Of a stretch of DNA of 64,000 nt, positions 5,602-52,642 are shown piece by piece (positions within the stretch are counted from its first letter, which is position 1; every line of letters starts with the position of its first letter). This stretch comes from Candidatus Omnitrophota bacterium (lineage in GTDB: Bacteria; Omnitrophota; Gorgyraeia; Zapsychrales; JAHFFX01). The position numbers and the translations under genes were made by a program. Below the pieces are notes generated by a model. It was given only the letters and a program-made list of their open reading frames with translations, was not told the origin of the DNA and searched no databases. Where the stretch lies: NCBI GenBank assembly GCA_023247725.1, contig JAHFFW010000003.1, positions 704-64,703 of the forward strand, written 5' to 3'.

Positions 5602-6178
5602 TCATCAGATCATTGCTGGCCTCATTGAACCAAATTCCCGGGTCCTTGACCTGGGCTGTGGCAATGGGGAATTGTTGGCACTCTTGACCAAGGAAAAATC
5701 CATCAAGGGCACGGGGATCGAAATCAATGAGAAGGCCATCTACCATTGCATGGAAAAAGGGCTAACGGTTTCTCATGCCGACATTGATTCCGGCCTCGTC
5801 GATTATTCCAACAAACGTTTTGATTATGTGATCTTAAATGAAAGTTTGCAGGAAGTCTTAAATCCTGACAAGGTGATCATCGAGGCTTTGCGGGTTGGAA
5901 AAGAAGTTATCGTCGGAATTCCGAATTTTTGCCATATCCGAGCCCGCTGGCAAATTTTTTTACAAGGCCGGGTGCCGGTGACCAAGGAATTGCCTTACCA
6001 ATGGTACAACACGCCCAATTTGCGTTTTTTGAGCCTTAAGGATTTTCATCATTTTTGCCAAATAAAGGGCATCACCATTGAAAAAAAAATTGCCCTTTCC
6101 AACCATCACCGCATCATCCATTTTAAGCCCAACCTTTTTGCGCATACGGGAATTTATCTTTTAAGCAAGAATGTTTAA
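5573..6178 (+). CDS. metW: Methionine biosynthesis protein MetW
   Basis: 201 aa; [15 protein letters not shown]-MTase-like motif typical of MetW. Overlaps the metX end. Confidence 0.85.
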
Positions 6179-6181
6179 AGC

Positions 6182-7378
6182 ATGAAACAGAAGTATGATT
6201 TTCTTATTATAGGCTCGGGAATCATAGGCCTGACGATCGCGCATGCCATCAAACGCAAAGAGCCGATGGCTTCTATCTTGATTATAGAGAAAGAGAAGGA
6301 CGTGGCATGCCACGCCTCCGGACGCAATAGCGGTGTCTTGCATGCGGGATTTTATTACACCGCCGATAGCCTCAAAGCCAAATTTACCATCGCCGGTAAC
6401 CGCCTCATGAAAGAATACTGCCGGGCGAAGAAACTTCCTATCAATGAATGCGGAAAACTGGTCGTCGCCTCCAATGCCAACGAACTCACGAGCCTTTTTG
6501 AACTGGAAAAACGCGGCAAGGCCAATGGTTCGAATATCTGCATCATCTCAGAAAAAGAGGCCATGACCAAGGAGCCCAATGTCCGAACCCATCAATACGC
6601 CTTGTTCTCGCCAGAAACGGCGAGTATTGATCCCGTCGCTGTATGCCAGAGCTTAAAAAGTGATTTGAAAGAATCCGGCGTGGAATTCCGGTTCCAGACT
6701 TCCTATCTTGCTCACGATCATAACGTCGTCAAAACAAACCAAGGCGAACTATCGGCGACCAAAATCATCAATTGTGCCGGACTCTATGCTGACAAACTCG
6801 CCAAGGATTTTGGTTATGGACACCAGTATACGATGATCCCCTTTAAAGGACTTTACCTCAAATATACAAAAAATAAAACCGATGTAAAAATGCACATTTA
6901 TCCAGTGCCTAATCTCAAAAATCCCTTTCTCGGCGTCCATTTTACCATCACGGTCCGACAAGAAATCAAAATTGGGCCTACCGCCATTCCGGCCTTGTGG
7001 CGAGAAAATTACAACGGATTCGACAATTTTCAAATCACAGAATTAATCCATATCTTAAATCATGAGACCAGACTTTATCTGACCAATGCATTTGGATTCC
7101 GGGAGCTCGCTCACACAGAGATAAAAAAATATAATAAAAGTTATTTTATCAACCTCGCCTTGCAGATGGTTCAAAAGATTGACCCGAACGGATTCACCGA
7201 GTTCACTTCTCCCGGCATTCGGGCCCAATTATTGGACACCCGGGAAAATCGACTTGTTCAGGACTTTATTGTGGAAGGTGATCGAGACAGTGTGCATGTT
7301 CTGAACGCGGTGTCGCCGGCTTTCACCTGTGCGTTTCCATTTACTGAGTTTGTTGTCAACAAGTATATCCTTATATAA
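6182..7378 (+). CDS. lhgO: FAD-dependent L-2-hydroxyglutarate oxidase family protein (LhgO-like)
   Basis: N-terminal DFLIIGSGIIGL dinucleotide fold; CHASGRNSGVLHAGFYY and AKFTIAGNRLM closely resemble LhgO. Confidence 0.75.
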   Translation: MKQKYDFLIIGSGIIGLTIAHAIKRKEPMASILIIEKEKDVACHASGRNSGVLHAGFYYTADSLKAKFTIAGNRLMKEYCRAKKLPINECGKLVVASNANELTSLFELEKRGKANGSNICIISEKEAMTKEPNVRTHQYALFSPETASIDPVAVCQSLKSDLKESGVEFRFQTSYLAHDHNVVKTNQGELSATKIINCAGLYADKLAKDFGYGHQYTMIPFKGLYLKYTKNKTDVKMHIYPVPNLKNPFLGVHFTITVRQEIKIGPTAIPALWRENYNGFDNFQITELIHILNHETRLYLTNAFGFRELAHTEIKKYNKSYFINLALQMVQKIDPNGFTEFTSPGIRAQLLDTRENRLVQDFIVEGDRDSVHVLNAVSPAFTCAFPFTEFVVNKYILI

Positions 7379-7386
7379 GCACATGA

Positions 7387-7535
7387 TGTGCGGATATTTT
7401 TCAAAAAACAGATTTAACGCGGATAATGCAGATTGCACGCAGATGGTCGCGGATTCAATCAGCGAAAATCTGCGCCCGCCTGCCGGCAGGCAGGTTTGAT
7501 CCGCGTGAATCTGCGTTAAATAAAAAACCCGCACA
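7387..7535. repeat. About 150-bp imperfect palindrome built from direct and inverted CGC(R)GAT heptamers around a perfect CCTGCCGGCAGG core
   Basis: Inverted pairs: tgtgcgg/ccgcaca, atttaacgc/gcgttaaat, cgcggat/atccgcg and cgcagat/atctgcg (several copies). Lies in the 280-bp lhgO-nfu gap. Confidence 0.45.
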
Positions 7536-7608
7536 CAGCGTATAAGCTCAATATTTATAGCTATTTAAAGCCTATTGCCAAAATAAGTTATATTTTGAAG
7601 TATTTTGC

Positions 7609-7642
7609 TTGACACTTAAGGCTTTTGATTTAAAATTAAAGC
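7609..7642 (+). promoter_or_regulatory. Candidate promoter TTGACA-N16/17-TAAAAT for the nfu-PCD-rrf2-suf cluster
   Basis: Consensus -35 hexamer and an AT-rich -10 about 35 nt upstream of the nfu ATG. Confidence 0.35.
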
Positions 7643-7674
7643 GGAACTAACGTCATTTCTTGAAAGGGAATACG

Positions 7675-8238
7675 ATGGAAGCCAGTGATATCCGCATGCA
7701 AGTCCAAAGCACCCCAAATCCGAATGCCTTAAAATTTGTCTTAAGCGTTCCGGTCAAAGCCGAAGGCAAGATCACCTATAAAAGCGCTGAGGAATGTCAT
7801 ACCAATCCGTTGGCGCGGCAACTTTTTAGCATTCCCCATGTGACCGAAGTTTTTTTCTTTGAAAACTATATCACCGTCACTCAAGATGGCAACGGCGATT
7901 GGGATGTTTTGGAAGAACAAGTTCGATCGAAGATCATGGATAATATCAAAACGCACGATCCGCATTTTAAAACGGAAGAGGCCAAGAAACCCGCCAGCCT
8001 CGCGGCCAGCCCAGAGCTGGCGAGGATCGAACAAATTCTGGATGATACAGTGCGACCAGCGCTACAAGCAGATGGTGGAGATTTGCAAATTTTGGGACTA
8101 GAGGGAAACACGCTCATGATCAATTATCAAGGAGCTTGCGGTTCATGTCCCAGCGCAACGATGGGAACTCTAAAAGCCATTGAAAATCTTCTAAGAGAAG
8201 AATATAACCCGAATATTGTTGTGCAAATGACGCAATAG
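7675..8238 (+). CDS. Nfu/NifU-type Fe-S cluster carrier. The ORF track opens at TTG 7660; the ATG at 7675 is preferred.
   Basis: Nfu N-terminal domain plus a C-terminal NifU-like CxxC motif (GACGSCPSATMGTLK). RBS AAGGGA 7 nt upstream of 7675. Confidence 0.8.
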   Translation: MEASDIRMQVQSTPNPNALKFVLSVPVKAEGKITYKSAEECHTNPLARQLFSIPHVTEVFFFENYITVTQDGNGDWDVLEEQVRSKIMDNIKTHDPHFKTEEAKKPASLAASPELARIEQILDDTVRPALQADGGDLQILGLEGNTLMINYQGACGSCPSATMGTLKAIENLLREEYNPNIVVQMTQ

Positions 8239-8698: not shown

Positions 8699-9187
8699 AT
8701 GTTTAAAATCAATCGCAAAATAGAATACGCCCTCATCTCGCTTAAACATATGACGGCAAAAAAACCGGGGCAGTTGACCAGCGCTAAAGAAATTTGTGAT
8801 CTTTACCGTACGCCTTTCGATCCCACGTCTCGGGTGCTTCAACTCATGGCTCAGCAAGGCATTATCAAGGCGGAACACGGTGCCCATGGAGGGTATCTCA
8901 TTACCAAAGATCTTTCTCGCGTCACCTTTAGTGAATTGGTCAATATGATTACCGGACCTATCCAATTGGCTAACTGTTTTCATGGCAACTATTCGCATTG
9001 CGATTTAACGAGCAATTGCAATGTCATATCGCCGATGCTCAATTTGAATGAACGCATGAGCCAACTCTTTAAAAATATCACCATCGCCGAATTGATCGCG
9101 GCTCGCCATATAGCGGAAGGTAAGATCAAATTAAAACCTTTTGCCAAAACCATAAACGCCGAGGTTGGCGCAACCAACGAAGCTTAA
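8699..9187 (+). CDS. Rrf2-family transcriptional regulator (IscR/SufR-like) preceding the suf genes
   Basis: N-terminal wHTH typical of Rrf2 ([15 protein letters not shown]...); C-terminal Cys and His residues. The ATG at 8699 is preferred over the TTG at 8693. Confidence 0.8.
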
Positions 9188-9197
9188 AAATCCTAAA

Positions 9198-10643
9198 ATG
9201 ACAAAAACCACTCAACAAGACGAACTGACCCAGCGGGAATACAAATACGGGTTTGTCACGGATATCGAAACCGAACAATTTCCCAAGGGTCTCAACGAAG
9301 AGATTATTCGTTTGCTTTCCGAAAGAAAGAAAGAGCCAGCCTGGATGTTGGAATGGAGGCTCAAGGCCTACCGCCATTGGACGACCATGAAAGAACCGCA
9401 CTGGGCCAATATCCATTATGATCCGATCGATTATCAAGCCGTGACCTATTACTCTGCGCCCAAAAAAGGCAAAGATAAAGCCCAAAGTTTAGAGGAAGTG
9501 GATCAAGAACTCTTAAAAACCTTTGAGCGGCTCGGGATCCCTTTGTCGGAACAAAAACGGCTGACCGGTGTTGCCGTCGATGCTGTCTTTGACAGCGTGT
9601 CGGTTGCAACCACCCATCAATCCGAATTAGCCAAATTGGGCATCATTTTCTGCTCCATGTCGGAAGCCATCTCCCATCACCCCGAATTAGTAAAAAAGTA
9701 CATGGGCTCTGTTGTGCCTTATTCGGATAATTTTTTTGCGACGCTCAACTCAGCGGTGTTTAGCGACGGTTCTTTCTGCTACATCCCAAAGAGCGTGCGC
9801 TGTCCCTTGGAATTATCCACGTATTTCCGGATCAATGCGGCCGATTCCGGTCAATTCGAAAGAACCTTAATCGTTGCCGAAGATGATAGCTATGTGAGTT
9901 ATCTGGAAGGCTGCACCGCTCCTATGCGCGAACGCAACCAGTTGCACGCGGCCGTCGTCGAATTGATTGCACTCAATAACGCGGAGATCAAGTATTCCAC
10001 CGTACAGAACTGGTATTCCGGGGATAAAGAGGGACGGGGAGGGATTTATAACTTCGTCACCAAGCGCGGCAAGTGCGTTGGAGTCAATTCAAAAATTTCT
10101 TGGACTCAGGTGGAAGCAGGAGCGGCGATTACCTGGAAATATCCCAGTGTCATTTTGCAGGGAGATCATTCGGTTGGTAAATTCTATTCGGTCGCCTTGA
10201 CCAACAATCGCATGCAGGCCGATACCGGCACCAAAATGATCCATATCGGAAAGAACACGAAAAGCACAATTATTTCTAAAGGAATTTCCACCGACCACTC
10301 CAACAATAATTATCGCGGTCTGGTCAAGATTCTTCCATCGGCTGATGGTGCGCGCAATTTCTCTCAGTGCGACTCGATGCTCGTGGGCAACAATTGCAGC
10401 GCTAATACATTTCCTTATATTGAAGTCCGAAATACAACCGCCGTGATGGAGCATGAGGCCTCGACCTCGAAGATCAGTGCGGAACAGCTGTTTTATCTGC
10501 GTTCCCGCGGACTCGATCTGGAAGGAGCCGTGTCACTCATCATCAACGGCTTTTGTAAGGAAGTCTTTAAGGAATTGCCCCTGGAATTTTCCGTTGAAGC
10601 AGTTCGGCTTTTGGAAATGAAACTCGAAGGCAGTGTCGGCTAA
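9198..10643 (+). CDS. sufB: Fe-S cluster assembly protein SufB
   Basis: Conserved [20 protein letters not shown] and C-terminal SufB/D beta-helix. The track start (9165) is a TTG inside rrf2; the ATG at 9198 is preferred. Confidence 0.9.
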
Positions 10644-14477: not shown

Positions 14478-14510
14478 GTGACTCGTCGTCCGTGACCTGT
14501 GGCGCGTCAA
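14478..14510. repeat. GC-rich intergenic repeat, family B (half element)
   Basis: gtgactcgtcgtccgtgacctgtggcg shares gtgactcgtcgYccgtg with 41707-41762 and gtgacctgtggcg with 44388-44488. Confidence 0.4.
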
Positions 14511-17277: not shown

Positions 17278-17320
17278 ATAAAAGTGTTAAGTGTTACTTG
17301 TCACTTGAAACTCTACACTC
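17278..17320. repeat. Family A repeat copy (AAGTGTTAAGTG core) in the 48-bp moaE-fdx spacer
   Basis: aaaagtgttaagtgtta... matches the cores at 17580-17610 and 31377-31446. Confidence 0.4.
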
Positions 17321-17573: not shown

Positions 17574-17579
17574 TGGATT

Positions 17580-17862
17580 CAGTGTAAAGTGTTAAGTGAA
17601 AAGTGTTAAGAGGAAACCCTTAATGATCGAGGCACTTGCCTAAACTAAAAACCATTTTGCATACTTCAACACATCAATGTTACGGTAAAGATTTCGTTCG
17701 TGAAGTCGAGGGTTTTTTGATAAACCTTTAATTTTTCAAAATCAAATTCAAAATCGTTTTGAGTCATGCTTCCTCCTTTGACTGATTGTCTGTCCAGTTG
17801 AAATGGGAAAACCGAACACTCAAAACACTTTTAACACTTAACACTTGGCACTTTACACTAAA
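17580..17862. mobile_element. MITE/IVS-like element of about 285 bp. Imperfect terminal inverted repeats built on AGTGTAAAGTG...AAGTGTTAAG enclose a truncated four-helix-bundle ORF.
   Basis: Left arm 17580-17610 (cagtgtaaagtgttaagtgaaaagtgttaag). Right arm 17816-17862 is its reverse complement (cttaacacttttaacacttaacacttggcactttacact) and overlaps the ispH stop. Confidence 0.45.
17666..17767 (-). pseudogene. Truncated four-helix-bundle protein (23S rRNA intervening-sequence protein / DGR Avd family), 33 codons
   Basis: MTQNDFEFDFEKLKVYQKTLDFTNEIFTVTLMC* matches helix 1 of the family (FE.L.VYQ.a..l..EIy..T). Perfect AGGAGGA RBS 5 nt upstream. No continuation in any frame. Confidence 0.45.
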
Positions 17863-24210: not shown

Positions 24211-24695
24211 CTAATTGGTCGCGGCGAGCAGCTCGTTAAGGCAATCGAGGACCTCTTCATGATGAGTTTTCGGTCGGACCTTGGGGAAGATTTTGGCAAT
24301 CTTGCCATTTTTATCAATAATAAATGTCGTACGCTCAACTCCCATGTATTTGCGTCCCATGAACGTCTTTTGCTGCCAGACCCCATAATCCTGCAACATC
24401 TTTTTGTCGGGATCGCTCAATAAGAGAAAGGGGAGATTAAATTTTTGGATGAATCGTTCGTGGCTCTGAACACTATCCGGGCTAACTCCCAGAATTATGG
24501 AGTCCTTGCCAGTGATGGATTTGATCGCGTCCCGAAAATTGCAAGCCTCGACGGTACAACCGGGGTATCATCCTTAGGGTAAAAATACAGGACCACATTT
24601 TTATTACCGCGAAAATCTTTGAGCGAAACCTGACCTCCATGCGAGGCTCGCAGGGAAAATTCTGGCGCCAGATTGCCTTCCTTGAGTTTAGTCAT
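24211..24695 (-). pseudogene. bcp: Peroxiredoxin Bcp (AhpC/TSA family), disrupted by a 1-nt frameshift in a G4/C4 run at 24551-24554, exactly at the peroxidatic Cys codon
   Basis: The N-terminal ORF gives ...[18 protein letters not shown].... Shifting one nt restores [15 protein letters not shown]...DKKMLQDYGVWQQK... through to the C-terminal ORF 24211..24420. Confidence 0.75.
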
Positions 24696-24711
24696 TGGTT
24701 TGTCCTTTTTT

Positions 24712-24760
24712 GTGGCTCGTGGCCCGTGACCCGTCAACGGCCACGAGCCACAGGTCACGA
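24712..24760. repeat. GC-rich palindromic repeat, family B (pseudoknot-capable)
   Basis: gtggctcgtggcc-cgtgacccgtcaac-ggccacgagccac-aggtcacg: a perfect 13-bp stem, with loop segment cgtgacc complementary to the downstream ggtcacg. Confidence 0.45.
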
Positions 24761-31376: not shown

Positions 31377-31446
31377 CAGTGTAAAATGAAAAGTGTTAAG
31401 TGTCAGGTAATGGTATCAATTGACAACGAATGCCACTTAACACTTT
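31377..31446. repeat. Family A palindromic element: AAGTGTTAAGTG ... CACTTAACACTT, 12-bp perfect arms with a 31-nt spacer
   Basis: Left arm 31391-31402 and right arm 31434-31445, preceded by agtgtaaaatg as in the 17580 copy. Lies between the leuB-like gene and asd. Confidence 0.45.
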
Positions 31447-31458
31447 AAAAAAAACATT

Positions 31459-32472
31459 ATGAAAAAAATTAATAAAACCTACAACATCGCCGTCGTAGGA
31501 GTAGGGGCGGTCGGCGAAGCGATGCTGCGCGTGTTGCGCCAGCGGAAATTCCCGATTAATACACTGAGGATCTTTGCGCGCAGCGCCCGGACGATCAATG
31601 TCGATGGACAAGAATATTCCGTTGAGGAATTAACTCACGATTCGTTTCATGGGATCGATATCGCCCTTTTTGCTGGAACCGAAGGAGAAAAGGGGGCGGC
31701 GGTGACCTATGCGGCAAGTGCGATTAAGGCCGGGGCGGTCGTCATTGACAATGGCGCAGATTTTCGCATGAAAAAGGATGTTCCTCTCGTCGTACCGGAA
31801 GCAAATCCCGGCGATGTCAAAAACCATAAGGGCATCATTGCCAATCCCAACTGCTCGACGATCCAGATGGTCGTGGCGTTAGCCCCCATCAAAAAGAGAG
31901 CGGGACTCAAACGTGTTGTTGTTTCAACTTATCAGGCTGTTTCCGGTAGCGGCCGGGGAGGTATGGTTCAGATAGAAAAAGAATACCGCGCCTGGGCTGC
32001 CAATTCTTCCGAAAATATTCCCGTGGCCATGTCACAAACCATCCGGTTCAATATCTTCCCGCACATCGGAAGTTTTAATGCAGACGGTTCCACCACCGAA
32101 GAAATGAAAATGGTCCATGAAACCCGCAAAATCCTGCACGACAACAAAATCAAGATTTCTGCCACCACGGTGCGGGTCCCAGTTGTGAATGGCCATTCGG
32201 AAGCCGTTTACATCGAAACCACCAAGCCGATTTCTCCGGATTCGGTTCGATCCCTGCTCAAAAAATCTGCCGGGATCATTGTGATGGACGACCCTAAGAG
32301 CAATCTATACCCCATGCCCATCCACTGCGATGGCAAGGACGAAGTTTTTGTCGGGCGGATCCGGCGCGATGCATCAGTCAAAAACGGCTTATGGCTTTGG
32401 ATTGTCGCCGATAACTTGCGCAAAGGCGCCGCCACCAATGCCGTGCAGATTGCGGAATTGTTAATCAAATAG
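31459..32472 (+). CDS. asd: Aspartate-semialdehyde dehydrogenase
   Basis: NAD(P)-binding N terminus VVGVGAVG and the active-site NPNCSTI Cys motif. Confidence 0.9.
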   Translation: MKKINKTYNIAVVGVGAVGEAMLRVLRQRKFPINTLRIFARSARTINVDGQEYSVEELTHDSFHGIDIALFAGTEGEKGAAVTYAASAIKAGAVVIDNGADFRMKKDVPLVVPEANPGDVKNHKGIIANPNCSTIQMVVALAPIKKRAGLKRVVVSTYQAVSGSGRGGMVQIEKEYRAWAANSSENIPVAMSQTIRFNIFPHIGSFNADGSTTEEMKMVHETRKILHDNKIKISATTVRVPVVNGHSEAVYIETTKPISPDSVRSLLKKSAGIIVMDDPKSNLYPMPIHCDGKDEVFVGRIRRDASVKNGLWLWIVADNLRKGAATNAVQIAELLIK

Positions 32473-32563
32473 CGGATAGCGAATAGCGGACGAGACAATC
32501 TCAAAAACTTCTTGTCACAACTGACATCTCTGTCCGCTAACCGCTACACGCTGTCTCTTTGCA

Positions 32564-34313: not shown

Positions 34314-34365
34314 ATCAATCCAGTAGAAAATAACCATCGCAGGTCGGCCAAAAGGCCATTTCTAA

Positions 34366-34408
34366 CCTATCTCCCTCGACAAAAGAGTTGACGAGATAGG
34401 TTTTTTAT
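34366..34408 (+). terminator. Rho-independent terminator after rpsI
   Basis: cctatctc...gagatagg stem followed by TTTTTT; a small ggcc-aaaa-ggcc hairpin lies just upstream. Confidence 0.6.
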
Positions 34409-34593
34409 TTTAATATACGTTATTCTTTTTTAAATTTTCAGTCGAGAAAATGCCCGTGACAAAAATGTGAGCCTAAGATTACCCCGCACTTTGCTTGAGG
34501 TTTTTTGAATATTTCCACAAAGGCGGGGTTGTTCTATCTATTGTGTCGACCGCATTTCTGGCTTTTAAAAATTCCTTTTTTTAGGAGAAAATC

Positions 34594-38769: not shown

Positions 38770-39684
38770 ATGAAACGCAATTTTGTCAATATTGAGGATT
38801 TTTCCGGTGAAGAGATTTTGCAACTTTTGGAATTGGCCAAAAAACTCAAGGCAAACCGGAAACTGCATTCGCAAGCCCTGGAGGGAAAAACCTTCGCCTT
38901 GTTGTTTACCAAGCCGTCGAATCGAACCCGGGTCTCTTTTGAAGTGGGCATCCACCAGTTGGGAGGAAACTGCATTTATTTAAGTCCTCGCGAGATCCAG
39001 TTAGGGGAGCGGGAATCTGTTTCTGATGTGGCAGGCACGTTGTCTCGCTTTGTCGACGGCATTGTGGCGCGGACCGACACCCACAAGGATGTCGAAGACC
39101 TGGCGCGTTTTTCCAGTGTCCCGGTCATTAATGGCCTGAGCGACGAACAGCATCCCTGTCAGGCCTTGGCGGATCTATTTTCCATTAAAGAAAAGCTTGG
39201 CAAATTGAAAGGGATCACGTTGGCCTTTGTCGGTGACGGCAATAACGTTTGCCATTCACTCATGCTGGGCTCTGCTCTGGTCGGTTTACAGATGAGGATC
39301 GCGACGCCCAAGGCGTACGCGCCGGATCCGAGCATTCTCAAAAAGTGCCAACAACTGGGGCAACGCTCGGGAGCGGAAATCGCTTGGATGGAATCGCCGG
39401 CTGAGGCCGTGAAGGACGCCCACGTGATTTATGCCGATACCTTCGTGAGCATGGGCCAAGAAGCAGAAATGAAAAAGCGGCTCAAAGACTTTAAGAAATT
39501 CCAAATTAACTCTGGGTTAGCCAAACTGGCAGACAAGAACTTTATTTTTATGCATTGTTTGCCGGCCCACCGCGGACAGGAAGTGACCGAAAAAATTATT
39601 GACGGGAAACATTCGATCATTTTTGATCAAGCGGAAAATCGGCTGCATGTGCAGAAGGCCATCCTGATTCGACTAATGCAATGA
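38770..39684 (+). CDS. argF: Ornithine carbamoyltransferase ArgF
   Basis: STRTR carbamoyl-phosphate motif and HCLPAHRGQEV. Confidence 0.9.
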   Translation: MKRNFVNIEDFSGEEILQLLELAKKLKANRKLHSQALEGKTFALLFTKPSNRTRVSFEVGIHQLGGNCIYLSPREIQLGERESVSDVAGTLSRFVDGIVARTDTHKDVEDLARFSSVPVINGLSDEQHPCQALADLFSIKEKLGKLKGITLAFVGDGNNVCHSLMLGSALVGLQMRIATPKAYAPDPSILKKCQQLGQRSGAEIAWMESPAEAVKDAHVIYADTFVSMGQEAEMKKRLKDFKKFQINSGLAKLADKNFIFMHCLPAHRGQEVTEKIIDGKHSIIFDQAENRLHVQKAILIRLMQ

Positions 39685-40094
39685 GCAAACCCCGCAAAAA
39701 TGAATTTTCCAAGGTGATTGCAACGAGAAGATTAATCGCCCAAAATATCCGAGGTCGAAAATCGGAGATCATGGTTAGAATTTCTAAACCAGTCTCAGAG
39801 AAACATTATTACCGATGTTGCTATACACTCGAAGGCCTGTCTAAAGAAATCGAGTCGGCTTGTGGAGAAGACGCCGTGCAAGCCCTTGAACTGGGGTTAA
39901 AGAAGATCGGTCGTGACCTTGATCACCTTCAAAAAGCTAAAAAGCTGAAGATCACTTGGTTGGGGATGCACCACAGTTTCCCGGAAGTAAAGATATCAAC
40001 AATTTTCCCCTCGAAAAAATTAAATCAATATCTCAAAAAGGTTGACCATCTTACGAAGCTCATAAAAGCGAACCGGTCAATACCGAAAATCTAG
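39681..40094 (+). CDS. Hypothetical 137-aa protein embedded in the arg operon. Not ArgR-like.
   Basis: ATGA overlap with the argF stop. Basic protein with a YYRCCY segment; no recognisable family. Confidence 0.5.
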   Translation: MSKPRKNEFSKVIATRRLIAQNIRGRKSEIMVRISKPVSEKHYYRCCYTLEGLSKEIESACGEDAVQALELGLKKIGRDLDHLQKAKKLKITWLGMHHSFPEVKISTIFPSKKLNQYLKKVDHLTKLIKANRSIPKI

Positions 40095-40125
40095 AAACAC
40101 GATGACTTTTTAGGATTTAAAAGGT

Positions 40126-40533
40126 ATGATCCCGGATAATCCGAGAGTCCCATCGGTTGGAGTTCAGATTTTTGGAATCCTTCAAGTCCTGCTGGGGATT
40201 CTAGGTATTTTTTCGCTTCTTGGAATCAAGGAGCGTGACTTGTTCGATCTGTTCATCATGGGGACCCTGGCTTTCAATATTTTCTTGGGATTCAAAATGC
40301 TTCAACTTAAACCTTACGCCAGAATCGCAACTCTGCGGTTGGTGTATTTTTTATTAACAATTTATCTTTTGGCTGTCTGGGGATTGGGATATTCCTTAAC
40401 CAATCATGACGGTTTCATTTGTTTGCTATTCACAGCTATTGGGGTCGTAATCGCCTCTCCCGTTATATTTTTTCTCAGACACCCCAAAGTAAGGGAACAA
40501 TTTACCGTACCAATAGATACCCAAAGGATGTGA
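40126..40533 (+). CDS. Hypothetical 4-TM membrane protein embedded in the arg operon
   Basis: 135 aa with four hydrophobic helices; ends 8 nt before argG. Confidence 0.5.
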   Translation: MIPDNPRVPSVGVQIFGILQVLLGILGIFSLLGIKERDLFDLFIMGTLAFNIFLGFKMLQLKPYARIATLRLVYFLLTIYLLAVWGLGYSLTNHDGFICLLFTAIGVVIASPVIFFLRHPKVREQFTVPIDTQRM

Positions 40534-40540
40534 GGGACCA

Positions 40541-41704
40541 ATGAAAAAAGTTGTTCTGGCGTATTCCGGTGGACTTGACACCTCCTGCGCCATTCCGTGG
40601 CTCAAGGACAAAGGCTATGCGGTCATCGCCATGATCGCGGATGTTGGCCAAAAAGAAGACTTTGCTCAAATCAAGACCCGGGCGCTTAAAACCGGCGCCG
40701 CCAAAGTGCACGTGCTTGATTTGAAAAAGGAATTTGTTGAGAACTATGTATTCGCTGCCTTAAAGGCCGGCGCGGTTTACGAACGCAAATATTTTATGGC
40801 GACGTCCTTATCCCGCCCGATCATCGCTAAATATCAGGTCGAGGTGGCGCATCAAGAGAAGGCGACGGCCATTGCGCACGGCTGTACTGGAAAAGGAAAC
40901 GATCAAGTGCGTTTTGAAGTGACGGCCAAAATCCTTGATCCGAAACTAGAGACGATTGCGCCGGTGAGAATTTGGGAATTCAAAACCCGCGAGGAGGAAA
41001 TCGATTATTTGTACTCGAAAGGCGTGACGCTTGAAATCACCAAGAAGAAACCGTATTCCATCGACAAAAACATTTATGGGATGAGCATTGAGGCGGGCGT
41101 CCTGGAAGATCCATGGACCGAGCCGCCGGAAGATATTTACCAGATGACGACCTCACCGGAAAAGGCCCCATCGAAACCGATTTATTGTGAAATCGATTTC
41201 GGAAAAGGAATTCCCAAAAAACTGAACGGCAAATCCTATCATGGCGTCGTCTTATTAGAGAAGCTCAATCATATAGGGGGGACGCAGGGAATTGGCCGCG
41301 TGGATATGGTGGAAAATCGCTTGGTGGGGATTAAGTCCCGGGAAATCTATGAATGTCCCGGCGGTACGATCTTATTGACGGCCCATCAGGAACTCGAGGC
41401 CATGGTTTTGGATCGGGAAACGATGCGTTACAAACAGGGCGTTTCCCTCAAATACGCCGATCTGATTTACTACGGACTCTGGGAAACGCCCCTCAAAAAA
41501 CAACTGGATCAATACATCGAAGAAACTCAACGCCATGTGACGGGCACGATCCGATTGAAATTGTATAAAGGCAATTGCACGGTCGTCGGCCGTAAGTCGC
41601 CGTACTCCCGTTATAAAAAGGAACTGGCCACCTATGGCCACGGAGATCAGTTTGATCAGAAATTATCAGAAGGGTTTATTAAAATTTGGGGAATGCCGTA
41701 TTGA
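40541..41704 (+). CDS. argG: Argininosuccinate synthase ArgG
   Basis: AYSGGLDTS PP-loop; 387 aa. Confidence 0.9.
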   Translation: MKKVVLAYSGGLDTSCAIPWLKDKGYAVIAMIADVGQKEDFAQIKTRALKTGAAKVHVLDLKKEFVENYVFAALKAGAVYERKYFMATSLSRPIIAKYQVEVAHQEKATAIAHGCTGKGNDQVRFEVTAKILDPKLETIAPVRIWEFKTREEEIDYLYSKGVTLEITKKKPYSIDKNIYGMSIEAGVLEDPWTEPPEDIYQMTTSPEKAPSKPIYCEIDFGKGIPKKLNGKSYHGVVLLEKLNHIGGTQGIGRVDMVENRLVGIKSREIYECPGGTILLTAHQELEAMVLDRETMRYKQGVSLKYADLIYYGLWETPLKKQLDQYIEETQRHVTGTIRLKLYKGNCTVVGRKSPYSRYKKELATYGHGDQFDQKLSEGFIKIWGMPY

Positions 41705-41706
41705 TT

Positions 41707-41762
41707 CGTGACTCGTCGCCCGTGGCTCGTCTCGGGACACGAGTCACGGGTCCCGAGCCACT
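41707..41762. repeat. GC-rich repeat, family B, with interleaved (pseudoknot-type) complementarities
   Basis: gtgactcgt ... gtggctcg ... acgagtcac ... cgagccac in A-B-A'-B' order in the 73-bp argG-argH spacer. Confidence 0.45.
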
Positions 41763-43122: not shown

Positions 43123-44379
43123 ATGCATGATTTTATTTTCAAAAATAATGAACTGCACTGCGAAGCTGTGAAAGTGAGCGATGTGGCCGAACAGATTGGC
43201 ACGCCATTTTATTTGTATAGTCATCATAGCCTGGTCGATCACTTCACCAAGATCAAAAAGGCCTTTGCGCCGGTAGATCCCATCATCTGCTTTGCGATGA
43301 AAGCCAATGGAAACATGGCCGTCGTCAAAACCCTTTTGAATGAGGGAGCGGGCCTGGACATTGTCTCTAAAGGGGAATTGGAAAAGGCCTTAACGCTGGG
43401 GGCCGATCCCAAAAAAATTGTCTTTGCCTCCGTTGGAAAAACAGCGGAGGAAATCAGTCAAGCCATCCGCGCCGGGATTCTTTTTTTAAACGTGGAGTCG
43501 GTTCCGGAATTGGAGGAGATCAACCGCATCTCCCAAAAACTGAATCAAAAAGCCCGCGTGGCCTTGCGCATCAATCCGGATGTGGAGGCTCCGACCCACA
43601 GCTTCATCAAGACCGGTACCCTCGAGAAAAAATTTGGCATTGATCTGCGCTCGGCGCGGCGCCTTTTTAAGTCGCGCAGTCGCTTTCCCTTTGTGACCAT
43701 CAACGGCCTGCATATCCATATCGGTTCGCAAATCACCGAAAGCCAACCCTTCATCAGGGCCATGAAAAAAGTCATTGAATTTTTGCAAGCCTTGCGCAAG
43801 GATAATATCCGCTTGGAATACCTGGATATGGGCGGAGGCATGGGGATCATCTACAAAGATGAAAAACCGCAAACGGCTCAAGAATTTGCCAACCGCATCT
43901 TGCCTTATCTCGAGCAAACGCAGTTAAAAATTGTGATGGAGCCCGGCCGCTTCATTGTCGGCAATGCCGGAATTTTTGTGACCAAGGTTTTGTATATCAA
44001 GGATAATGGTTTTAAAAAATTTGTGATTGTCGACGGCGGCATGAATGACCTCATCCGGCCGTCGTTGTATCATGCCTATCATGAAATCGTGCCCGTCAAA
44101 AAAACCAAGTCTCCATCAATGAAAGCCGATATCGTTGGCCCGGTTTGCGAAAGCGGCGATTTTTTTGCCAAGGATCGGCGGATTCCGAGGGTAAAAAAAG
44201 ATGACCTCTTGGCGGTCATGAGCGCCGGGGCCTATGGATACGTCATGGCCAGCAATTACAACATGCGGCCGCGGGTGCCTGAGGTCCTGGTCAAAGGCGA
44301 TCGATTCGAAGTCGTCAAGGAACGCGAAACGTTTGCGGATTTGATTCGGGGGGAACGCATTCCCGAATTTTTGAAATAA
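43123..44379 (+). CDS. lysA: Diaminopimelate decarboxylase LysA
   Basis: PLP-dependent Orn/DAP decarboxylase fold (FAMKAN ... GGGMGI ... CESGD). Confidence 0.9.
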   Translation: MHDFIFKNNELHCEAVKVSDVAEQIGTPFYLYSHHSLVDHFTKIKKAFAPVDPIICFAMKANGNMAVVKTLLNEGAGLDIVSKGELEKALTLGADPKKIVFASVGKTAEEISQAIRAGILFLNVESVPELEEINRISQKLNQKARVALRINPDVEAPTHSFIKTGTLEKKFGIDLRSARRLFKSRSRFPFVTINGLHIHIGSQITESQPFIRAMKKVIEFLQALRKDNIRLEYLDMGGGMGIIYKDEKPQTAQEFANRILPYLEQTQLKIVMEPGRFIVGNAGIFVTKVLYIKDNGFKKFVIVDGGMNDLIRPSLYHAYHEIVPVKKTKSPSMKADIVGPVCESGDFFAKDRRIPRVKKDDLLAVMSAGAYGYVMASNYNMRPRVPEVLVKGDRFEVVKERETFADLIRGERIPEFLK

Positions 44380-44387
44380 GTTGAAAG

Positions 44388-44488
44388 GGTCACACCTCAC
44401 AAGGTCACCAGTCACAAGTGATATTGACCGTTCAAAATTCTTGAACAGTCCAACACCTGTGACGTTGTGACCTGTGGCGTTGTGACTT
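44388..44488. repeat. About 100-bp nested palindrome, family B (GTGAC/GTGGC-rich arms around a gttcaa-aattc-ttgaac core)
   Basis: Left arm ggtcacacctcacaaggtcaccagtcacaagtg is the approximate reverse complement of right arm cacctgtgacgttgtgacctgtggcgttgtgac. Confidence 0.45.
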
Positions 44489-44496
44489 TGCTAATG

Positions 44497-52390: not shown

Positions 52391-52642
52391 ATGGCCCAAA
52401 AAGTCGCTAAGGTTGGAGTCAAAAAGGAAAAGGGGTTCCTGTACTTTGTCGACCGGCAAGGGGACGTCTCCTGCGCAAAAATGGCGCGCGGCAACAAAAA
52501 AGGCGGCGCCCCCAAAAAAGTCGCTAAAGTCGGTGTCAAGAAACAAGACGGATATCTGTACTTTCTTGACAAACAGGGTGATATTTCCTGCGCAAAATTA
52601 ATCCGCGGAGGAAAGAAAAAGAAATCGGCAAAAAGAAAATAA
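52391..52642 (+). CDS. Small basic protein (83 aa) made of two tandem copies of a 36-aa repeat: KVAKVGVKK..G(F/Y)LYF(V/L)D(R/K)QGD(V/I)SCAK
   Basis: Strong RBS GGAGGGAGG. Two half-length repeats visible at nt and aa level; Lys-rich tail. Confidence 0.55.
   Translation: MAQKVAKVGVKKEKGFLYFVDRQGDVSCAKMARGNKKGGAPKKVAKVGVKKQDGYLYFLDKQGDISCAKLIRGGKKKKSAKRK

Follow-up and report, generated by a model that had tools for sequence, protein, structure and literature searches.

Four spacers between co-directional genes carry related repeat elements in a 64-kb stretch of a Candidatus Omnitrophota metagenome-assembled genome (MAG), hereafter the window, which lies within a 132.9-kb metagenome contig (ENA ERZ27297570). 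The elements are found at the sufU-moaA, VOC-bcp, argG-argH and lysA-dapF junctions, and we regard them as a dispersed extragenic family of heptamer arrays, most of which form stable intercistronic hairpins that are tolerated and possibly stabilize mRNA. We give this reading as a whole a probability of about 0.55, its identity part being much more secure than its functional part. Four features are measured: the 7-nt period, the scattering of long exact words over separate loci, the restriction to spacers between cistrons and the stability of the hairpins. We infer by analogy that the hairpins may stabilize mRNA. Unless a relative or the contig annotation is named, the copy counts, transposase negatives and repeat census reported below cover the 64-kb window.

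The four sites had been described from the sequence alone as GC-rich palindromes at operon junctions that share several words and that could be repetitive extragenic palindromic (REP)-like elements, terminators or attenuators, or RNA motifs with pseudoknot-type complementarity (the original prediction). Our analyses show that the elements belong to a class of heptamer repeats akin to the short tandemly repeated repetitive (STRR) sequences of cyanobacteria and are only partly REP-like. They lack the defining features of intrinsic terminators, of H-type pseudoknots and of any Rfam family.

A degenerate heptamer in four intercistronic spacers

The organizing unit of the four sites is a degenerate tandem heptamer, GTGRCNN, which the original prediction had overlooked. 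The phased two-unit pattern GTGRCNNGTSRC has eight matches in the window for 0.39 expected, a number reached in none of 100 shuffles, and all eight fall within the four sites, whose sequences and coordinates were as initially transcribed. Phased-pattern searches allowing mismatches yielded no additional copy of this GC-rich family ("family B" of the original prediction) in the window. The long words said to be shared between sites are exact, with none expected by chance: a 17-nt word (GTGACTCGTCGYCCGTG) is present at 14478 and 41708, and a 12-nt word (GTGACCTGTGGC) at 14492, 24747 (minus strand) and 44467. Four of the five occurrences of GTGGCTCG in the window are in elements. Another word, CCGTGACC, is present in elements as claimed but with only two of its six occurrences there, and is weak by itself.

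Several analyses point to the 7-nt period. Tandem Repeats Finder reported a period of 7 at 24712 and 44389, of 14 at 41729, and of 8/15 in the right arm of the lysA-dapF copy (44455-44490), and chains of GTG or CAC step by 7 to 8 nt in the elements. In a sliding autocorrelation over the whole window, lag 7 was the sole enriched lag among lags 3 to 13. The signals at lags 14 and 15 correspond to the double of lag 7 and to the 7- plus 8-nt units of the lysA-dapF copy. No lag-7 signal was detected in control loci from outside the Omnitrophota. Within and between arms, the GTG..C core of the unit is kept, and its last two positions are variable.

Every array is located in a spacer between open reading frames (ORFs), although such spacers represent only about 7% of the window. 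Across copies, the base of the stem lies 3 to 8 nt past the stop codon and 4 to 16 nt ahead of the next ATG. The "operon junctions" of the original prediction are thus intercistronic spacers in co-directional gene runs and not operon ends. Its two other descriptors hold for three copies each: the GC content is 64 to 70% in all but the lysA-dapF copy, which at 48% equals the window, and all but the sufU-moaA copy fold as palindromes. Where a GTG array faces an inverted CAC array, as at the VOC-bcp, argG-argH and lysA-dapF junctions, the transcript or the DNA in single-stranded form folds into a long and stable stem-loop, whereas the single array after sufU does not fold.

The VOC-bcp copy (24711 to 24759, minus strand) separates the stop codon (24763-24761) of a VOC/glyoxalase gene (25216-24761, minus strand) from the start of bcp (24695). 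As bcp is also on the minus strand, the transcript is the reverse complement of the structure originally drawn, and the sense RNA reads CGUGACC UGUGGCU CGUGGCC GUUGACG GGUCACG GGCCACG AGCCACA. In register on the forward strand, the units are GTGGCTC GTGGCCC GTGACCC GTCAACG / GCCACGA GCCACAG GTCACG. The perfect 13-bp stem described initially is present and is extended to 14 bp by a closing U-A pair. It pairs 24711-24724 with 24739-24752 around a 14-nt loop, for a folding energy of -34.3 kcal/mol and a z-score of -4.6 (energies being compared with those of shuffled sequences), and an extra GTGACC unit lies outside the stem (24753-24759). Between the hairpin base and the bcp ATG, an unpaired A-rich spacer (24696 to 24710, minus strand) contains a Shine-Dalgarno-like AGGA, giving the sense layout TGA-T-hairpin-AAAAAGGACAAACCA-ATG.

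The argG-argH copy (41708 to 41761, plus strand) occupies the spacer between the argG stop codon (41702-41704) and the argH ATG (41778) in a similar manner, with the layout TGA-TT-hairpin-TAAAAAGGAAATCACC-ATG. Its units are GTGACTC GTCGCCC GTGGCTC GTCTCGG / GACACGA GTCACGG GTCCCGA GCCAC, and its nested fold has an energy of -33.7 kcal/mol (z -3.0). Aligned over 71 columns, this copy and the VOC-bcp copy show 70% identity, and the tail CCAC[A/T]AAAAAGGA is part of the shared sequence. In both, the ribosome site is unpaired, with AGGA and then ATG 15 to 16 nt downstream, and a near-identical A-rich AGGA tail is also found in the related genome L020. The sufU-moaA copy (14478 to 14510, plus strand), between the sufU stop (14474) and moaA, is a solo direct array, GTGACTC GTCGTCC GTGACCT GTGGCGC GTCA, which lacks an inverted counterpart and does not fold significantly (z +0.26).

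The lysA-dapF copy (44386 to 44489, plus strand) extends from just past the lysA stop codon (44377-44379) to 4 nt ahead of an ATG at 44494 (MAHQNQRILFTKMVGAGNDF). The nested palindrome reported there was confirmed as a hairpin of about 104 nt with an energy of -48 kcal/mol (z -4.6). A CAC-type array (GTCACAC CTCACAA GGTCACC AGTCACA) is followed by the centre GTTCAA-AATTC-TTGAAC and by a GTG-type array with 7- and 8-nt units. The original prediction had placed the dapF start in the right arm. However, that GTG (44467) is simply the start of the longest ORF, and the N-terminus conserved in relatives, xxFTKMVGAGNDF, places the start beyond the hairpin, so that ATG 44494 is most likely the dapF start; in the public annotation it is ATG 44530. 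The ribosome-site region of dapF would then fall within the 3' arm of the hairpin. In four relatives, the ends of lysA and dapF overlap as ATGA, so that the element appears as a lineage-specific insertion of about 112 nt.

The same scan detected other heptamer arrays, making the GTGRCNN family the GC-rich member of a wider class, in which each hairpin is built from two oppositely oriented arrays of degenerate heptamers. By unit, the loci in the 64 kb are four of GTGRCNN, four of AGTGTTA and one of ATAGCGG type.

The same junctions in related genomes

The nearest genomes to the window by ArgH are Candidatus Omnitrophota MAGs. ArgH identity is at best 58% among GTDB representatives and reaches 69% in a large protein collection; one ArgH scan each of GTDB genomes and JGI metagenomes found no relative above 58%. 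Relatives have the same arrangement of genes in the arg and dap regions. The only other assembly of the same organism (SRR14366766; L001 and L024) is identical to the window at two elements, among them the VOC-bcp copy in L024. Between species, the arrays differ in unit and in unit number.

The spacer after argG contains a heptamer-array hairpin in six of nine genomes, with a different unit in each. Relative to the window (ArgH 100%, 73-nt spacer, GTGRCNN), the spacer is 78 nt with units GTCACAA / TGTGACT in L019 (ArgH 69%), 74 nt with units GTGTCAC / GTGTTAC in L020 (65%), and 128 nt with units CCCCAGT / ACTGGGG in L025 (63%; hairpin 8712-8800). We take the CCCCAGT of L025 to be the STRR1 unit of cyanobacteria. 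In L027 (62%), the hairpin (9144-9225, unit NNNTCAG) abuts the argG stop codon, and a toxin-antitoxin pair lies before argH. The most divergent of the six, L003 (45%), has a 370-nt nested palindrome made of CGTGAAT, ACCAGAT and TCGAAAT arrays plus their inverses. The other three genomes, L002, L004 and L026 (57 to 63%), have a short spacer or overlapping genes and no heptamer unit there. The z-scores of the hairpins, computed in the five relatives L019, L020, L023, L025 and L027, range from -2.5 to -7.3.

Other junctions behave similarly. A TAGCGGA-type heptamer hairpin occupies the VOC-bcp junction in L023 (65% ArgH identity), and an ATAGCGG hairpin is found at the asd-truA junction in both L023 and the window; the two L023 arrays, of ATAGCGG type, are at 2218-2289 and 10454-10542. 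At VOC-bcp, the spacer of the window measures 65 nt, whereas that of L022, with 1 nt, is virtually absent. From the presence of heptamer hairpins with different units at the same junctions in relatives, it follows that junction position and hairpin-of-heptamers architecture persist across deep divergence while the sequence turns over. In L003 (JACPQZ010000065), a stretch of 20.7 kb contains 25 heptamer arrays that represent 14 or more different units, with enrichment confined to lag 7. The argG-argH palindrome of this genome (9027-9400) is layered, with successive arrays of different heptamers and then their inverses.

In the window, the further arrays outside the GTGRCNN family are AT-rich or carry the ATAGCGG unit. 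A hairpin of AGTGTTA units is located between the ferredoxin gene and moaE (17283 to 17312, minus strand). Inverted AGTGTTA-type arrays (17578-17612 and 17828-17862, minus strand), each of 35 nt and 83% complementary, lie between ispH and the ferredoxin gene and bracket a 215-nt interval that holds a 33-codon ORF remnant (17767-17666, minus strand). This remnant may resemble the start of a four-helix-bundle protein of the 23S rRNA intervening-sequence type, but Pfam gave no match. An AGTGTTA-type hairpin (31390 to 31446, plus strand; z -3.8) between an isopropylmalate-dehydrogenase-like gene and asd is followed by an A-run and then ATG. The AGTGTTA arrays are probably the "family A" of the original prediction. 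The ATAGCGG hairpin (32469 to 32554, plus strand; z -7.7) occupies the asd-truA junction, and its first unit includes TAG, the stop codon of asd.

Additional observations concern the neighboring genes. The argF-argG junction is a hot spot of inserted small genes and toxin-antitoxin modules (39681-40533 in the window, 8245-8728 in L020 and 6975-8822 in L026). In L027, inserts are found at 5613-7986 and 9268-9986, i.e., at the argG-argH junction too. The inserted modules (DUF6968, BrnT, AbiEii, NTP_transf_2/HEPN) vary between otherwise syntenic genomes. These small genes raised the question of integron attC sites, which by inspection were rejected: there are no RYYYAAC/GTTRRRY ends and no integrase, and the flanks are syntenic core genes. 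ArgR boxes, considered because of the CGTGAAT units after argG in L003, were rejected as well, since the TGAAT-N4-ATTCA spacing is missing and the family also occurs at non-arginine genes. The bcp gene (24211-24695, minus strand), which encodes an AhpC/TSA peroxiredoxin, is split by a single frameshift near 24561-24585, in the codon that precedes the catalytic Cys, in the context ..DDTP/GCT.. with GATACCCCGGTTGTACC in place of the expected CCGGGT. Its N- and C-terminal parts match the Pfam profile in different frames, and the frameshift is also present in the second assembly, indicating a real pseudogene or a shared read error. Finally, an imperfect tandem repeat of 18 to 19 nt (CAAAAAAGGCGCGCGCCAA, 2.6 copies; 52476-52524) upstream of uvrA lies in an apparent lysine-rich small ORF.

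Alternative explanations

The elements share with intrinsic terminators a GC-rich stem-loop past a stop codon, but differ from them by the lack of a U-tract, by the immediate presence of a ribosome site and the next cistron, and by their position within operons. None of the copies is followed by a U-tract (on the sense strand, the tails read AAAAAAGGA, UAAAAAGGA and GCUAAUG), and a consensus terminator scan flagged none of them, contrary to the terminator or attenuator role that had been suggested. The next co-directional start codon is 4 to 16 nt past the hairpin, so that the copies are not at the end of a transcription unit. The elements could still act as U-tract-less, I-shaped partial terminators or attenuators that reduce expression of the downstream cistron, in keeping with their strong, GC-rich stems and with the GC-rich, U-tract-less hairpins at gene ends in relatives (L019 18615-18767; L020 18603-18676). 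We nevertheless consider this decidedly improbable: the sites are inside conserved biosynthetic operons with a ribosome site close by, AT-rich versions at equivalent positions have weak stems (-8 to -17 kcal/mol), and one copy, after sufU, has no hairpin. Moreover, a canonical U-tract terminator is used after rpsI (34364-34410), with a nearly identical sequence in L019 (3505-3645) and L020 (2822-3137). A structured regulatory RNA using an H-type pseudoknot, as proposed in the original prediction, is hardly credible. The complementarity on which it was based is real, since the 7-nt loop CGTGACC of the VOC-bcp copy can pair with the following GGTCACG and the argG-argH copy has the order A-B-A'-B', so that both contain complementarity in crossing order. 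However, the connecting loops of an H-type pseudoknot must span its helices, and in the VOC-bcp copy both would have a length of 0 nt while having to cross one helix of 14 bp and another of 7 bp, which the geometry of such pseudoknots does not allow. At argG-argH, the crossing helices scored singly have energies of -13.4 and -12.9 kcal/mol versus -33.7 kcal/mol for the nested hairpin, which is at least as good. Crossing complementarity is in fact expected, because both arms are arrays of near-identical units. Unit A (GTGACTCG) and unit B (GTGGCTCG) of the argG-argH copy are one transition apart, and the pairings A-B' and B-A' are therefore nearly as favorable as the exact ones, A-A' and B-B'. 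In the VOC-bcp copy, the left arm is ordered B, B', A and the reverse complement of the right arm A, B, B', a permutation that leaves one GTGACC unit over on each side. The other copies of the window and the orthologues are simple or nested hairpins in which crossing helices are not kept. The Rfam comparison gave no match at gathering score over the whole window, and at E<=10 the elements matched only generic microRNA-like hairpins, with 9 to 21 bits against thresholds of 40 to 221. Loop geometry, the plain hairpins of orthologues and the Rfam result thus leave the "RNA motif" reading unsupported.

Two further explanations were considered. The elements might be mobile miniature elements, of REP type copied by a REP-associated tyrosine transposase (RAYT) or of miniature inverted-repeat transposable element type, with the hairpin mobilized by a transposase encoded elsewhere and the heptamer texture being secondary. 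Long exact words shared by unlinked loci, the lineage-specific insertion into the formerly overlapping ATGA junction of lysA and dapF, and the contrast between L022 and the window at VOC-bcp are all consistent with mobility, and the GTGA/GTGG at which the arms open recalls the GT[AG]G head of REP elements. This explanation appears unlikely, however, as there is no full-length consensus unit, unit number and order vary among copies, and neither target-site duplications nor distinct terminal repeats are visible. Neither those proteins of the window that were scanned nor the public contig annotation included a transposase. The orthologous junctions keep a hairpin but change its unit, pointing to turnover in place rather than repeated insertion. 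Viral contigs contained 65 exact matches to GTGACCTGTGGCNCGT, of which five had three phased units; these matches are attributed to chance because those five are in high-GC coding sequence. Alternatively, the arrays may be bound by a protein that recognizes 7-nt units in DNA or RNA, such as a single-strand binder of the cold-shock-domain type or a nucleoid or regulatory protein, and that coordinates the flanking genes. The retention of the GTG..C core with two variable last positions, and the occurrence of GTG/CAC-core heptamers at the argG-argH junction in four genomes, would fit such a reader, for which there is the precedent of CspB, with one protein per heptamer, and the speculated partners of Nostoc heptamers (PMC4679880; bioRxiv 10.1101/2022.06.06.494920). 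Against it, unrelated units (CCCCAGT, NNNTCAG) are found at the same junction in other relatives, and a single reader could not accommodate the 14 or more units of L003. The genes on either side have no function in common, as they belong to Fe-S assembly, to arginine and lysine synthesis, or encode a peroxiredoxin. In addition, a 7-bp period does not align sites on one face of B-DNA. An array of binding sites is therefore a rather improbable explanation.

A class of heptamer repeats and its possible role

The features of the family are best matched by the STRR sequences and intergenic heptamers of other bacteria. Heptamers are an odd, over-represented class of bacterial simple repeats whose cause and role are not known (PMC4692102; PMC4679880). 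They include cyanobacterial STRR together with the GGGGAYT repeats of Nostoc and the GGGAATC repeats of Xanthomonas, some of them arranged as inverted pairs (PMC4692102), elements of four GGGACCG units at 49 sites in Geobacter metallireducens (PMC2700814), and TAACTGA repeats that immediately precede start codons in Beggiatoaceae, in cyanobacteria and in some Bacteroidetes (PMC4679880). According to a preprint, heptamer repeats upstream of recF and recO in Nostoc have regulatory effects (bioRxiv 10.1101/2022.06.06.494920). Like these, the Omnitrophota elements consist of at least three head-to-tail 7-nt units, in degenerate tandem arrays of about three to five, at several dispersed loci. In both cases the arrays are strictly intergenic and often adjoin start codons, related units are found at many loci per genome, and some arrays are inverted pairs able to form stem-loops. 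In contrast, the present elements belong to the Omnitrophota and have the unit GTGRCNN, the inverted-pair hairpin dominates rather than being the exception, and they occupy spacers of conserved operons, where their position is kept across genomes while the unit changes.

Resemblance to REP elements and bacterial interspersed mosaic elements (BIMEs) was the closest of the three initial guesses. As in REP/BIME, the copies are dispersed, imperfect, mostly palindromic extragenic sequences that share long words, often lie between co-transcribed genes and have no U-tract. However, they have no single conserved unit of 20 to 40 nt: identity between copies is at most 70%, and the number and order of units differ. 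Within the arms the sequence repeats every 7 nt, one copy forms no palindrome, and no RAYT transposase was seen in the 64 kb, among proteins scanned or annotated. The known effect of REP/BIME in enterobacteria and pseudomonads is to stabilize upstream mRNA segments, as for malE-malF.

A dispersed family of tolerated heptamer arrays could be maintained as follows. At the DNA level, arrays would grow, shrink and be replaced through slippage and copying between loci, which would explain the turnover of the unit with position and architecture kept. A self-folding insert would keep the upstream stop codon close to the downstream ribosome site or start codon, with only a few nucleotides between them at the helix base. 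Expression would thereby stay coupled, and this would account for the persistence of the elements in tight operon junctions. If they have a role on the mRNA, it would be to delay decay in the 3'-to-5' direction or to mark sites of processing, in the manner of REP elements and other hairpins between cistrons. Those of malEFG (REP) and of the puf operon, for example, shield the RNA upstream of them from 3' exonucleases or determine where processing takes place. The hairpins would not serve as terminators or pseudoknotted switches.

Several points weigh against this reading. Every functional step is one that we infer. Over 11 hairpins, we found no bias between sense and antisense strands in G.U pairs (23 versus 25) or in folding energy, and thus nothing singles out RNA over DNA as the constrained molecule. 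The corresponding junctions of L022 and L026 have no spacer at all, arguing that the hairpins are dispensable. The closest genomes are only 65 to 69% identical in ArgH, spacers are unalignable between relatives, and the hairpin center is one unit off between the window and L020. Lastly, the shared long words require copying between loci, yet no transposase, terminal repeat or target duplication was found in the window.

We also entertain, as a speculative and unlikely extension, that an unseen factor which reads or writes 7-nt units builds and maintains heptamer stem-loops at set Omnitrophota operon junctions, as in heterocystous cyanobacteria. The hairpins might then be selected regulators of segmental mRNA stability or translational coupling. 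If so, the conservation of their architecture at one junction, with replacement of the unit, across genomes that are 45 to 69% identical in ArgH would be a signature of function and not of neutral slippage.

Our literature search found no report of such heptamer repeats in Omnitrophota, and the present elements add this phylum to the heptamer-repeat class. In practical terms, the annotation of MAGs should mask or model these elements, which generate spurious long ORFs and misplaced starts, as for dapF. The family also represents a natural experiment in which the same operon junctions keep a heptamer hairpin across diverged genomes while its unit is replaced, and of which the insertion into the formerly overlapping stop/start junction of lysA and dapF is a further part. 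These loci thus allow a test of whether selection maintains such repeats as mRNA structures or the genome tolerates them as weeds.

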